Origin: Beijerinckiaceae bacterium
Lineage (GTDB): Bacteria > Pseudomonadota > Alphaproteobacteria > Rhizobiales > Beijerinckiaceae
NCBI GenBank assembly: GCA_021324915.1
Contig: JAJPIC010000015.1
Coordinates: 11,102-75,101, forward strand
DNA length: 64,000 bases
Reading direction: 5' to 3'
Made by a program: the position numbers and the translations under genes. The notes under the pieces were generated by a model. It was not told the DNA's origin. It was given only the letters and a program-made list of their open reading frames with translations, and did not search any database. This document shows positions 15,674 to 48,246 of the stretch, in pieces. Each line of letters begins with the position of its first letter. Position 1 is the first letter of the stretch.

Positions 15674-15717
15674 GTTCGTATTTTGTTCTGGACACGCTTC
15701 AGCTTCCAAGCTAGGAT
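15674..15717 (+). promoter_or_regulatory. LexA (SOS) box GTTC-N7-GTTC abutting a sigma70 promoter TGGACA-N17-TAGGAT
   Basis: GTTCGTATTTTGTTC at 15674-15688, -35 at 15689-15694, -10 at 15712-15717. Confidence 0.75.
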
Positions 15718-43338: not shown

Positions 43339-46300
43339 TCAGACGTGTTCCACGTTAACGATTCCCGGAATAGCTTTCAAAGTCGCAGCGACCTGCGCGC
43401 TCGCCTGATATTTGCCCGGCAATTTGAGCTCGACCTCGCCCGTCTTGGTCGGCAGGACGAGAAAGATCTCGTCGTCGCCCCTGCCCGAAAGCCCCTTGGC
43501 GATTGATTCGAGTGGACCTTCGTCGCGCAAGAAAATGCGCAGGCCCTTTTGGATACGGCTCGCCGCATTGTCGAGCGGCTCGACGGAAATGATCCGCGCG
43601 CGCACGTCTTCGCCGTCGACATTGGCCTGAAGACCCAGAAGCACGGCCGCGCCCTTTTCCAGCAGATCGCGGTATTGATTGAGGCCTTCCTGGAACAGGA
43701 TGGCTTCATATTGGCCGGATTGATCGGAAAGCTGGACGATCCCCATTTTCGTGCCGGAACGCGTGCGCCGCTCCTGGCGCTCGAGCACGATCGCCGCAAG
43801 CCGGCCGGCCGAGGCGCCTTGTTTCACCCCGCGAGCGAATTCCGCCCAGCGCGTCACCCGGAGCCGGCCCAGAATCGCAGCATAGGCTTCGAGCGGATGG
43901 CCGGACAGGAAAAAGCCCACGGCATCGAATTCGCGGCGCAGCCGCTCGGCGAGCGGCCAGCTCTCGGTCTTGATGCGGGCCAGCGGATCGATCGGCTCGG
44001 CATCGAAGAGCGCCGACTGGCCGGCGCGCCGTTCTTCCTCGCGCCGATGGCCGAGCGAGAGCATGGTTTCGATGGCACCGAAGACGCGGGCGCGATCGCC
44101 TTCGAGCGCGTCGAAAGCGCCGGCGGCGGCGAGACTTTCGAGCATGCGCTTATTGAGATCGCGCGGACTGATGCGCGCCGCAAAATCGGCAAGATCGGCA
44201 AAGGCTCGGCCGCCCCGCGCGGCAACGAGCGCCTGCGCATGGCCATCCCCCACGCCTTTGATGGCCGATAATGCATAAATGATCGACAACGTGCCGTTCG
44301 CATCGGCGGCCACCTCGAAATCCACGCCGGAGCGATTGACCGAAGGCGGCTCGATCGTAATGCCGAGCCGGCGCGCCTCGTTGCAGAATTCGGCGAGCTT
44401 ATCGGTCGAGGATTTGTCGAGCGTCATGGACGCGGCAAGAAATTCGACCGGGTAATTCGCCTTGAGATAGGCGGTCTGGTAGGTCAGAAGCGCATAAGGC
44501 GCCGAATGCGATTTGTTGAATCCATATTCGGCAAATTTCGCACAGGCATCGAAGATCGCGTCCGCGTCCGCCTTCGCGAGGCCCCGCTCCACCGCACCCG
44601 AGACGAAGCGGCCGCGCTGCGCATCCATCTCGGCCTTGATTTTCTTGCCCATGGCGCGGCGCAGAGAATCGGCCTCGCCCAGCGAATAGCCCGACAGCGT
44701 CTGGGCGATCTGCATCACCTGTTCTTGATAGATGATGACCCCAAACGTCTCCTTGAGAATCGGCTCGAGCTTGGGATGAAGATATTCGACCTTTTCCTGC
44801 CCGAGCTTGCGCGCGCAATAGACCGGAATATTGGCCATCGGCCCGGGCCGATAGAGCGCAACGAGCGCGATGAGGTCCTCGAAACGGTCGGCGCGCATCT
44901 CGACCAGCGCCTTGCGCATGCCTGCGCTTTCAACCTGGAACACGCCGACGACCTCGCCGCGTCCCATAGTCTCGTAGGTCTTCTTATCGTCGAGCGGTAT
45001 GGCGGCAAGATCGACATCGATGCCGCGCCGCGCCAAGAGCCGCACGGTCTTGTCGAGGACGGTCAGCGTCTTAAGGCCCAGAAAGTCGAATTTGACGAGG
45101 CCGGCCGGCTCCACCCATTTCATGTTGAACTGGGTCGCCGGCATATCGGATTTTGGATCGCGATAGAGCGGGACCAATTCTTCGAGGGGACGATCGCCGA
45201 TGACAATCCCGGCCGCATGGGTCGAGGCATTCGAATAGAGGCCTTCGAGCGTTTCGGCGATCTTCAACATGCGCGCGACGCGCGGCTCGGCTTCCGCAGC
45301 CTCCTTCAGGCGCGGCTCGGCGGCAATCGCTTGTTTAAGACTGACGGGTGCTGCCGGATTTTGCGGCACGAGCTTGGCGAGCTTATCGACTTGCCCCAGC
45401 GGCATTTCGAGCACCCGGCCGACGTTGCGCATGACCCCGCGGGCGAGGAACGAGCCGAAGGTGATGATCTGCGCGACCCTGTCTTCCCCATAACGGTGGC
45501 GAACGTAACGGATCACTTCGTCGCGCCGGTCCTGGCAGAAATCGATGTCGAAGTCCGGCATCGAAATGCGTTCGGGATTGAGGAAGCGTTCGAAGAACAG
45601 GCCAAAACGCAAAGGATCGAGATCGGTGATCGTCAGAGCATAGGCAACGAGCGAGCCGGCGCCCGAGCCGCGCCCCGGGCCCACCGGAATGCCCTCGGCC
45701 TTGGCGTATTTGATGAAGTCCGCGACAATGAGGAAATAGCCGGGAAATTTCATCCGGATGATCACGTCGAGCTCATAGGCGAGCCGTTCGCGGTAGGCTG
45801 CCTCCGTAAGGCCCGGCGCAAGGCCGCGCTTGGCAAGCCGCGCGACGAGCCCCGCCTCCGCCTGGCGAACGAGCTCGTCCGCTTCGTCGCCCTCTCCGCT
45901 GGCACTGCCGAAGCGTGGCAGGATCGGCTTGCGCGTTTGAGGCCGATAGGCGCAGCGGAGCGCGATCTCGACCGAATTGGCGAGCGCCTCCGGAAGATCG
46001 GCGAAAGCAACGCCCATTTCGGCGCGCGATTTGAACCTGTGCTCGGGCGAAACTTGGCGTCGCGCACCATCGCCGATGACCGTTCCGTCCGCGATGCAAA
46101 GAAGTGCGTCATGGGCCTCGAAATCGGCCGCCCCGGCAAAATAGGATTCATTGGTCGCAACGAGCGGCAGGCTGCGCCGGAAGCTCAGATCAATGAGATC
46201 GGGCTCGATTTCGCGCTCGCGCGCGAGCCCGTGACGCTGAAGCTCGACATAGAGACGACCGGAGAAAAGCGCCTCGAGCAGCGAAAGGCGGCGGCTGGCA

Positions 46301-46851
46301 ATTTCCGGCCGCCCAAGAGCGAAACATTGATCGAGCGGGCCTTTCGGACCGCCGGAGAGCGCGATCAGCCCGTCGCTCCGGCTTTGCAGGCGGGCAAGCG
46401 TCACATGCGGCGGATCGCCCGGCTCGGGATCGAGCCAGGCGCGCGAGGCAAGATGCATGAGATTGCGATAGCCGGCCTCGCTGCTCGCGAGCAGCACCAG
46501 CGATGCCCGCCCGGCCCCGGTCTCCGCGCCGCGCGGCGCGACATCGGCACCGTCGCCGAAATCGACGGCAAGCTCGATGCCGATGATCGGTTGAATCCCT
46601 TCTTTGGCCAGCTTTTCGGAAAATTCGAGCGCTCCGAAAAGATTGTTCGTATCGGTGATTGCCAGCGCCGGCATACCGTCGCCCGCCGCGAGCTTGGCCA
46701 ACTTCGCGATCGATAGCGCTCCTTCCCGCAGGGAGAAGGAACTGTGAACATGCAGATGAACGAAACCAACGGCGGCGGCCAGAACAGCCTTGAGCGAAGC
46801 CGCCGGTTGAGGCGGGTCCGCGACGAGATCTGCGGCGAATTGAGGTTCCAC
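43339..46851 (-). CDS. dnaE: DNA polymerase III alpha subunit
   Basis: PHP domain HLHVHS, GPGRGSGAGS, SMPDFDIDF, KFDFLGL, YGFNKSHS; GTG start approximate. Confidence 0.98.
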   Translation of the reverse strand: MEPQFAADLVADPPQPAASLKAVLAAAVGFVHLHVHSSFSLREGALSIAKLAKLAAGDGMPALAITDTNNLFGALEFSEKLAKEGIQPIIGIELAVDFGDGADVAPRGAETGAGRASLVLLASSEAGYRNLMHLASRAWLDPEPGDPPHVTLARLQSRSDGLIALSGGPKGPLDQCFALGRPEIASRRLSLLEALFSGRLYVELQRHGLAREREIEPDLIDLSFRRSLPLVATNESYFAGAADFEAHDALLCIADGTVIGDGARRQVSPEHRFKSRAEMGVAFADLPEALANSVEIALRCAYRPQTRKPILPRFGSASGEGDEADELVRQAEAGLVARLAKRGLAPGLTEAAYRERLAYELDVIIRMKFPGYFLIVADFIKYAKAEGIPVGPGRGSGAGSLVAYALTITDLDPLRFGLFFERFLNPERISMPDFDIDFCQDRRDEVIRYVRHRYGEDRVAQIITFGSFLARGVMRNVGRVLEMPLGQVDKLAKLVPQNPAAPVSLKQAIAAEPRLKEAAEAEPRVARMLKIAETLEGLYSNASTHAAGIVIGDRPLEELVPLYRDPKSDMPATQFNMKWVEPAGLVKFDFLGLKTLTVLDKTVRLLARRGIDVDLAAIPLDDKKTYETMGRGEVVGVFQVESAGMRKALVEMRADRFEDLIALVALYRPGPMANIPVYCARKLGQEKVEYLHPKLEPILKETFGVIIYQEQVMQIAQTLSGYSLGEADSLRRAMGKKIKAEMDAQRGRFVSGAVERGLAKADADAIFDACAKFAEYGFNKSHSAPYALLTYQTAYLKANYPVEFLAASMTLDKSSTDKLAEFCNEARRLGITIEPPSVNRSGVDFEVAADANGTLSIIYALSAIKGVGDGHAQALVAARGGRAFADLADFAARISPRDLNKRMLESLAAAGAFDALEGDRARVFGAIETMLSLGHRREEERRAGQSALFDAEPIDPLARIKTESWPLAERLRREFDAVGFFLSGHPLEAYAAILGRLRVTRWAEFARGVKQGASAGRLAAIVLERQERRTRSGTKMGIVQLSDQSGQYEAILFQEGLNQYRDLLEKGAAVLLGLQANVDGEDVRARIISVEPLDNAASRIQKGLRIFLRDEGPLESIAKGLSGRGDDEIFLVLPTKTGEVELKLPGKYQASAQVAATLKAIPGIVNVEHV

Positions 46852-46951
46852 GAGGCTTTCCGGAAATGCGCCCGCGATATTAGCGAGACGCGCTGAAGCT
46901 CAGAAGCAGGCGCGCGAGGCTCTCAACAGAAACGAGCGCGCCCAGCGGATT

Positions 46952-47047
46952 TCAGCCGGCACCCAGCGCCCGGGCGAGAATGGCGATGAAGGCAACAAAG
47001 AGAGTTAGCGAGGCAAGCTCAGCCGCATCTTCAACGAAGGGCAACAT
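46952..47047 (-). CDS. 31-aa single-pass membrane peptide MLPFVEDAAELASLTLFVAFIAILARALGAG, SidA-like SOS peptide (below the ORF-track cutoff)
   Basis: GGAG RBS 7 nt upstream of ATG; hydrophobic helix; LexA-boxed promoter; 100 nt upstream of dnaE. Confidence 0.75.
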   Translation of the reverse strand: MLPFVEDAAELASLTLFVAFIAILARALGAG

Positions 47048-47069
47048 AGGCGTACTCCATAGCCCGTAT

Positions 47070-47103
47070 GTTCCCTTTATATTCCTATTATGTTCTATGT
47101 CAA
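47070..47103 (-). promoter_or_regulatory. Sigma70 promoter TTGACA-N16-TATAAA overlaid by a triple LexA half-site array
   Basis: Plus strand GTTC(47070)-N7-ATTC(47081)-N7-GTTC(47092); -35 at 47103-47098, -10 at 47081-47076. Confidence 0.85.
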
Positions 47104-47354
47104 GCTTAACTTCCACCCGGCAATTATTTTTGCGGAAATTACAGATGAGTTGCCAGAGGCTTAGGCCGCAGATTTGGCACGTTCCCGTTCCATCCCCCGT
47201 GTTAATACTGGGGAAAACTTCAAACTGTTAAGGAACTTTCAAGAATTCATCAAAGTCGAGCGCTAACTTGGCCGGATACGCTTGAGAACGGCATGCCGTT
47301 CAGCCTTGAACCGGCTTCGAAATTCTCGCTCGTCCGCCCGATCCAAATTTTGGC

Positions 47355-47390
47355 AAAAATGAGCCCCGACGCGCGGCACGCGCCGGGGCT
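47355..47390 (-). terminator. Rho-independent terminator after the DUF4239 gene
   Basis: AGCCCCG...CGGGGCT stem followed by a T-tract on the minus strand. Confidence 0.65.
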
Positions 47391-47469
47391 GACATTTTCA
47401 GTTCCACCGAGCGGGACATTCTCGGCTCTCTTTTATCGGGCGGCAGGCTTGCGCCGGGCTGAGGCGATC

Positions 47470-48246
47470 CTAGCCCGCGGGAAGCACGTCGAGCAGACGG
47501 GCTATAGGCGCGGATGAAACCGCCAGCGGCGGGGCGAAGGGCAGCTCATGCGCCGCGAGCAGGCCGAGGACGACAACGAGGCTTACCGTCAACACCGTCT
47601 GCGCTGCGATCTGCGGACGCAAGCGATCGAGATGGACGAGGGCCGTGCTGATCTGCGCCATGATCGCCAGCGCCAGCACCGCATACCATTTGACGCCGGC
47701 CGACTGGTCTTGCGCCAACACCAGGCGTGCACTCCGGGCGCTGCGAACCGAAAGCGCCGTCGTATACATGAGCCGATCGATTTCGCCCTTGCTCTCACCA
47801 ACGCGCAGATTGTCGATCGTTTTAAGCAGTTCGTCGAGCGCGCGCTCCGCCTCGGGCGAAACCTGCCTGCGTGCCATGCTCGGCCATTCCTTTTGCACGA
47901 CGATCGCGGCATAGGAGCGGATCGCCGCGTCGATCTGCGCGCGCGGAAGATTGAAGGTCGCAGCGAGCGTATCGAGCGCCAGGAGCTGATCGGCCTCCGT
48001 ATTGACCGTCGCCACGGCCCGTCGGTCGCGATCCGAAATGTCGCTGGCAAGAAAGCCGACGAGAATGGCGAGCATGGCGGCAATCGGGCCGACGAAGGGC
48101 GCCACGACCCCCTTGAAGCTTTGGATCGCGGGACCGCTTGCGCGCCCGAAAGAAAGGAAAACGAGGAGCGCGGCGATGCCGCCGAAAAAGAGTACGAGCG
48201 CTATGACAAGGGCCGGCAAAGGCAGCGCCAGCCAGGCTTCGACCAT
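47470..48246 (-). CDS. DUF4239-like membrane protein
   Basis: Two N-terminal TM helices, soluble helical region (EADQL, SIVQKEWPSM-like, SARL), two C-terminal TM helices then PF..PLAVS. Confidence 0.8.
   Translation of the reverse strand: MVEAWLALPLPALVIALVLFFGGIAALLVFLSFGRASGPAIQSFKGVVAPFVGPIAAMLAILVGFLASDISDRDRRAVATVNTEADQLLALDTLAATFNLPRAQIDAAIRSYAAIVVQKEWPSMARRQVSPEAERALDELLKTIDNLRVGESKGEIDRLMYTTALSVRSARSARLVLAQDQSAGVKWYAVLALAIMAQISTALVHLDRLRPQIAAQTVLTVSLVVVLGLLAAHELPFAPPLAVSSAPIARLLDVLPAG

Follow-up and report, generated by a model that had tools for sequence, protein, structure and literature searches.

A predicted LexA-controlled membrane peptide gene upstream of dnaE in Methylovirgula is a candidate orthologue of sidA

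The stretch of DNA analysed here (64,000 nucleotides of a Beijerinckiaceae genome, referred to below as the window) carries upstream of dnaE, and on the same strand, a 31-codon open reading frame. It is probably the sidA orthologue of Methylovirgula; in Caulobacter, sidA encodes a cell-division inhibitor that is induced in the SOS response. Sequence comparisons indicate that this ORF is a real gene under purifying selection and that it is an unnamed, diverged member of the known SidA family, not a new kind of system. Its assignment as a diverged sidA orthologue was made because of a profile-profile score and because of intermediate sequences that connect the two groups of peptides.

The features of the locus are listed in Table 1. 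An original prediction, made from the nucleotide sequence, had placed here a 96-nt ORF preceded by a GGAG ribosome-binding site and encoding one hydrophobic helix. All these elements were found in their places, the helix by AlphaFold2 modelling and by hydropathy. With the family alignment as input, AlphaFold2 returned a single helix comprising residues 3-27 (pLDDT 94.5), and the hydrophobic core was located to residues 8-24 (mean Kyte-Doolittle value 2.24); as modelled, the product is a peptide of about 30 residues with one hydrophobic helix, a predicted membrane peptide. A longer version of the ORF (54 residues, GTG start at 47116) was rejected: it would start 5' of the -35 element, and the unit that is conserved consists of the ATG and 31 codons.

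Table 1. Coordinates of features identified at the sidA-like locus, numbered from the first nucleotide of the window
Feature	Position	Strand	Details
Intrinsic terminator of the upstream bestrophin-like gene	47352..47390	minus	stem 47390..47362, T-run
Predicted promoter P1, sigma-70-type	47076..47103	minus	TTGACA 47103-47098, 16-nt spacer, TATAAA 47081-47076
Three predicted LexA half-sites	47070..47095	minus	GAAC 47095..47092, GAAT 47084..47081, GAAC 47073..47070
GGAG ribosome-binding site of the sidA-like ORF	47055..47058	minus	7 nt 5' of ATG 47047
sidA-like gene, 31 codons + TGA	46952..47047	minus	ATG 47047; TGA 46954..46952; product MLPFVEDAAELASLTLFVAFIAILARALGAG
Conserved motif TGTTGAGAG	46920..46928	minus	just 3' of the sidA-like stop codon
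Putative LexA-independent dnaE promoter P2	46877..46905	minus	TTCTGA-N17-TAATAT, inferred from sequence
dnaE, replicative DNA polymerase III alpha subunit	43339..46851	minus	NF004226, 1404 bits

The dnaE gene had been predicted to start 100 nt downstream of the peptide gene on the same strand, and this was borne out: exactly 100 nt separate the stop codon of the sidA-like ORF from the GTG start of dnaE (46851), a minus-strand ORF of 1170 codons whose score against NF004226 exceeded the cut-off of 1002 bits. No terminator was predicted between the sidA-like ORF and dnaE (46851 to 46952). On the other side, the upstream neighbour is a minus-strand ORF (47470-48246) that matched PF14023 (bestrophin-like membrane protein, E = 1e-39) and obtained no NCBIfam name. 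An insulating terminator had been claimed at 47355-47390, and a stem of 13 pairs, 10 of them G-C, with CATTTTTGCC after it, was indeed found there; this terminator is predicted to shield the sidA-like/dnaE unit from transcription entering from upstream. Just 3' of the peptide stop codon all 11 Methylovirgula loci that were read contain the motif TGTTGAG(A/G)G, which is located at a fixed distance of 23 nt 5' of the -35 hexamer of P2 in the nine loci having that hexamer. Genome-wide, the TGTTGAG motif was not enriched (8 observed vs 14 expected).

Promoter P1 and the three LexA half-sites covering its spacer and -10 element agreed base for base with the original prediction. Transcription from P1 is predicted to start near 47069. 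All Methylovirgula loci and most of the other families keep the CTTGAC sequence of this promoter; P1 was absent from the list produced by the promoter scanner only because the scanner demands that the -10 hexamer end in T. The half-sites are spaced by 7 nt and read GAAC-N7-GAAT-N7-GAAC on the minus strand (GTTC-N7-ATTC-N7-GTTC on the plus strand), so that by sequence the triple array constitutes two overlapping predicted SOS boxes of the alphaproteobacterial type, which lie across the P1 spacer and the -10 element. The same triple array, with the same spacing and the same 31-codon ORF, was found in 11 other Methylovirgula genomes, and in the Methylovirgula loci read the distance between the array and the ATG was 22-28 nt. 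Since dnaE is essential, a LexA-independent promoter must also be required, and the candidate is P2, which occurs with a 17-nt spacer in nine of the 11 genus loci (TTCTGA/TTCGGA/TTTAGG-N17-TAGGAT/TAGAAT). In two other families of the Hyphomicrobiales perfect DnaA boxes (TTATCCACA) were noticed between the peptide gene and dnaE, so that in those two families the housekeeping promoter of dnaE may be controlled by DnaA.

To see such operators in their genomic context, the whole 3.07-Mb assembly (62% G+C) was scanned for LexA boxes. The plain sequence GAAC-N7-GAAC occurred at the rate expected by chance (72 observed vs 74 expected); 18 of the copies have A/T-rich spacers, and some of these precede ssb, imuA, a PA0069-type radical SAM gene and comM/yifB. 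Because boxes of the same type precede canonical SOS genes here (ssb, imuA, radical SAM, comM), the operator type can be regarded as valid for this genome. Triple GAAY arrays were found seven times (about 1.1 expected), only two of them with A/T-rich spacers: the array of the sidA-like locus and the perfect array GAACATAATGCGAACATTTATAGAAC (contig C14:51700, outside the window), which precedes the PA0069-family radical SAM gene, whose counterpart in Caulobacter is among the most strongly responding SOS genes of that bacterium. As the radical SAM gene also has a triple array, two overlapping operators appear to be a native arrangement in this genome. The imuA gene with the SOS box sits upstream of imuB-dnaE2. 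A second dnaE-like gene (C7:85052-90608, outside the window), located downstream of an imuA-like gene, scored 540 bits, which is below the cut-off; by sequence this gene is dnaE2, part of the usual imuA-imuB-dnaE2 cassette. Two further boxes were seen in the course of the scan. One, GAACAAAATACGAAC, is located within the window (15674-15688, minus strand) and is a perfect SOS box whose spacer is A/T-rich; the other, also perfect (GAACAAAAAAGGAAC), precedes the gene of an IS1595-family transposase by 73 nt (C15:157315, outside the window), and this transposase may be damage-inducible.

SidA of Caulobacter crescentus was reportedly described by Modell, Hopkins and Laub in 2011. The gene is CC_1927, also designated CCNA_02004 (PMC4211646 supplement), and CC1926 is dnaE (PMC1839093). 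SidA is a division inhibitor acting on FtsW, with FtsW/FtsI as its target; a block of division by this route, with filaments on overexpression, is known for Caulobacter only (PMC4211646). After mitomycin C treatment the log2 fold change of sidA was 3.42 and that of dnaE 1.18, the latter being 1.45 in the lexA sidA double-deletion strain (PMC12700426 supplement); damage induction of sidA is documented only for Caulobacter (PMC4211646 and PMC12700426 supplements). The annotated form of sidA has 40 codons and is 123 bp long (bioRxiv 10.1101/2022.11.10.516041). Using the published primer sidA_R, the authentic locus was found on a Caulobacter contig derived from a metagenome. The ORF recovered in this way encodes 29 residues and its product shares 97% identity with proteins to which NCBI gives the name "cell division inhibitor SidA". 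The sequences GAACATCTTGTGAAC and GAACAAAACAAGAAA in front of this ORF are the two LexA boxes given for ccna_02004 (PMC12700426 supplement), and dnaE follows on the same strand after 36 nt. The position of sidA just upstream of dnaE, which had been stated along with the prediction, was thus confirmed both by the adjacency of CC_1927 and CC1926 and by the 36-nt gap in the recovered sequence. A scan of the class genome sample with the NCBIfam model NF033228 detected no authentic SidA above the cut-off.

This model (div_inhib_SidA, curated cut-off 35 bits) gave the Caulobacter SidA proteins 64-73 bits. At a threshold as loose as E ≤ 10 it still left both the window peptide and the peptides of the Bradyrhizobium type unmatched, and it had no match in the whole genome of the window at E ≤ 0.1. 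A plain HMM of the Hyphomicrobiales family gave Caulobacter SidA 4.3 bits only, yet ranked it first among the 331 frames of the contig. Profile-profile comparison gave a clearer result: hhalign aligned the Hyphomicrobiales family to SidA with a probability of 80% (P = 1.4e-5) over 28 columns that were in register from Met1. The score of 22.6 was not reached by any of 200 column shuffles (mean 8.0, maximum 15.3), the reversed alignment scored 6.3, and the Methylovirgula sequences alone scored 16.4 against SidA. In this alignment the N-terminal motif M-(L/I)-x-x-x-x-(E/D)-x-x-A-L-x-S of the window family and of SidA coincide. Two bridging peptides, both preceding dnaE behind SOS boxes, were found: MARWVRDTLSLASCGGFVWMVWHAALLVA (beginning with MARWVRDTLSLASCGGFVWMVW), which scored 24.9 bits against NF033228, below the cut-off, and MRVFVRESAAFGAMGLFTGMVALWASVLPRLF (beginning with MRVFVRESAAFGAMGLF). 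The original prediction had regarded the window peptide as a positional and functional analogue of SidA divergent in sequence. The divergence and the shared position stood, but "analogue" understated the relationship, homology to SidA being detectable by hhalign and through the intermediates.

Within the genus, a profile search matched the ORF in 28 of the 31 Methylovirgula genomes and in 20 of the 21 genomes of high quality. All 11 Methylovirgula loci that were read have exactly 31 codons, and the start, the distance to the ribosome-binding site and the stop are fixed. In a DNA search 11 other Methylovirgula genomes gave alignments of 71-81% identity to the block made up of promoter and ORF, but none to the spacer.

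The peptide family was followed beyond the genus by running the Methylovirgula peptide profile across 300 genomes of the order, and a widened profile across 301. The Methylovirgula profile gave 17 matches outside the genus. Sixteen of these were directly before dnaE, and in 15 of the 16 a perfect GAAC-N7-GAAC preceded the match by 52-86 nt; the seventeenth match was an ATPase b subunit. With the widened profile, 62 of the 301 genomes were matched at E ≤ 0.05. All 12 further in-order matches that were short ORFs precede dnaE behind a perfect box, and one match within a long ORF does not. Taken together, 30 out-of-genus matches were checked. In 28 of them dnaE follows directly, and in 27 of these 28 the match or the start codon is preceded by a perfect GAAC-N7-GAAC at a distance of 46-86 nt. 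Among 1.84 billion proteins, 533 clusters (50% identity) were matched at E ≤ 1e-3. The peptides of Bradyrhizobium and other Hyphomicrobiales (MEH2501833.1, SIO52757.1) belong to the same HMM family (E values down to 1e-18). Like the window peptide, the Hyphomicrobiales peptides annotated as "hypothetical protein" are encoded in front of dnaE and behind the same promoter, in which CTTGAC is followed after 3-5 nt by GAACaaaannnGAAC, a layout common across families. Exact family peptides in Bradyrhizobium records also carry only the label "hypothetical protein".

When the Hyphomicrobiales HMM was run over 400 genomes of the class, nothing credible was found outside the order. The same module was present in a class-wide sample of 116 dnaE upstream regions, of which 16, representing at least nine families including Parvibaculaceae, contained an A/T-rich SOS box followed 13-45 nt later by an ORF of 26-47 codons with a single hydrophobic helix. 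The 16 sampled peptides have in common the loose motif (E/K/Q)-D-x-A-A-L, followed in about ten of them by a Trp close to the helix end.

The window locus and Caulobacter sidA share a membrane peptide of 29-32 residues with a single helix (predicted for the window), two LexA operators over the promoter, and dnaE as the next gene on the same strand. They differ in several details. The window peptide has VEDAAE, with acidic residues, where SidA has ARESLA, and its helix, unlike that of SidA, contains neither Trp nor Cys. The charges of the N- and C-terminal flanks are -2 and +1 in the window peptide but +1 and 0 in SidA. At the window locus the operators consist of three half-sites that follow each other in a single 11-nt register, whereas the two boxes of sidA are separate, and the spacer to dnaE is 100 nt, with a probable second promoter, instead of the 36 nt of Caulobacter. 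Compared with the rest of the family, the Methylovirgula branch is derived and is without the Trp kept near the helix end in most other branches: other Hyphomicrobiales keep AAAL and a W-A-Q helix end, whereas Methylovirgula has AAEL and (L/V)-A-(R/K). The reversed flank charges imply that the membrane orientation or the target of the Methylovirgula peptide may differ from those of SidA; speculatively, by the positive-inside rule, the orientation could be a different one.

Pairwise differences between the Methylovirgula loci at codon positions 1, 2 and 3 of the ORF amounted to 0.27, 0.12 and 0.49. The dN/dS ratio was 0.17 (Jukes-Cantor) and pN/pS was 0.32, while the two other sense frames gave values of about 1 and 3. 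A conservation search, for which dN/dS below 1 was expected, had been proposed along with the prediction, and its outcome was as anticipated: ORF and SOS array are kept across the genus and across families, with dN/dS of approximately 0.17-0.3. One antisense frame, which has its wobble positions in common with the ORF, also had a low pN/pS (0.40). The selection statistics alone can therefore not fix the strand, but the ends of the antisense frame are not conserved. As a gene, the corresponding 83-residue antisense ORF (46980-47231) was rejected; its ends differ between loci and it contains internal stops in two families. It is open across the peptide because the wobble positions are common to both frames, and by these comparisons the antisense frame is a by-product, not a gene.

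The similar pN/pS of the antisense frame could be taken to mean that the ORF is not translated at all and that its conservation reflects constraints on the promoter, the operator and the 5'-UTR of an SOS-regulated dnaE transcript. This is extremely unlikely given that the third codon positions vary most and the second least, that frame, 31-codon length, ATG and ribosome-binding site are all kept, and that at the protein level the family covers lineages whose DNA no longer aligns. Alternatively, the peptide could be functionless and the ORF a leader that adjusts dnaE expression after damage through the act of being translated. Such a role would suit an ORF that lies 5' of an essential gene and is not separated from it by a terminator, and it would suit the co-induction of dnaE with sidA in Caulobacter, but it would not explain why the amino-acid sequence is kept across families and orders with low dN/dS. 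Moreover, the distance between peptide gene and dnaE ranges from 36 to more than 250 nt across relatives, the spacer is likely to contain a separate dnaE promoter, and SidA is a functional peptide; we consider a leader function very improbable.

The size class (about 30 residues, one helix) and the LexA control are also those of an SOS-induced type I toxin like TisB, the 29-residue membrane toxin of Escherichia coli and, like the predicted window peptide, a small damage-induced single-helix peptide. A toxin of this kind would depolarise the membrane and favour dormancy, and the divisome would not be its target. TisB, however, has no sequence relationship to the window peptide, which is homologous and syntenic with SidA, a division inhibitor acting on FtsW, and TisB has an antitoxin RNA. 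An Rfam search of 46600-47500 at E ≤ 1 gave no match to an antitoxin RNA or any other known family, a search which a novel antisense RNA could escape, and Pfam searching of the ORF at E ≤ 10 gave no match either, toxin families included. A toxin is thus improbable here, only slightly less so than a leader. Another comparable peptide is DidA (PMC4211646), the SOS-independent division inhibitor of Caulobacter, which is likewise a small, damage-induced, single-helix membrane peptide, but it has no sequence relationship to the window peptide, and didA is under DriD, not LexA, and is not beside dnaE. Somewhat less unlikely, though still doubtful, is a scenario in which the module of LexA-controlled promoter, membrane peptide of about 30 residues and dnaE is ancestral to much of the Alphaproteobacteria and was rewired in Methylovirgula, where the loss of Trp, the acidic N-flank and the basic C-flank would go with the opposite orientation or with another divisome partner.

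The reading that we prefer, a sidA orthologue, would imply the following course of events. In undamaged cells LexA dimers bound to the two overlapping operators would cover the P1 spacer and the -10 element and keep P1 shut, and dnaE would then be made from its own weaker promoter P2 within the 100-nt spacer. DNA damage would lead to RecA-stimulated self-cleavage of LexA and would free P1. The short P1 transcript would be translated into the 31-residue single-helix peptide of the inner membrane, which, by homology with SidA, would bind the late divisome (FtsW/FtsI) and delay constriction. Because there is no terminator after the sidA-like ORF, transcription would continue into dnaE and result in a modest rise in Pol III alpha. 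For the locus studied here we infer from the sequence that LexA binds, that damage induces the peptide gene, that this gene is translated, that its product targets the divisome, that transcription reads through into dnaE and that P2 is a promoter; the predicted coupling to extra Pol III alpha has a published precedent in the co-induction of dnaE in Caulobacter (PMC12700426 supplement).

The order Hyphomicrobiales includes relatives of methanotrophs, rhizobia and Bradyrhizobium. No paper in the literature collection searched names an SOS-induced division inhibitor of Hyphomicrobiales, and a search for bacterial homologues of SidA returned only the fungal siderophore enzyme SidA. The window locus and its relatives offer a concrete division-inhibitor candidate for this order, which is open to ordinary genetics. 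The finding leaves the known mechanism of SidA unchanged and would extend the known system to more bacteria; the pairing of sidA with dnaE appears to be an old conserved SOS unit that is not peculiar to Caulobacter.

The NCBI SidA model names Caulobacteraceae proteins only, and annotation pipelines miss or mis-call the gene, which a broader family model would fix. Most database entries of the peptide family were found to be mis-called, some of them with N-terminal extensions that begin at upstream in-frame starts. Other mis-called entries have C-terminal extensions, in which the TGA stop codon was read as Trp (...IPQLW...).
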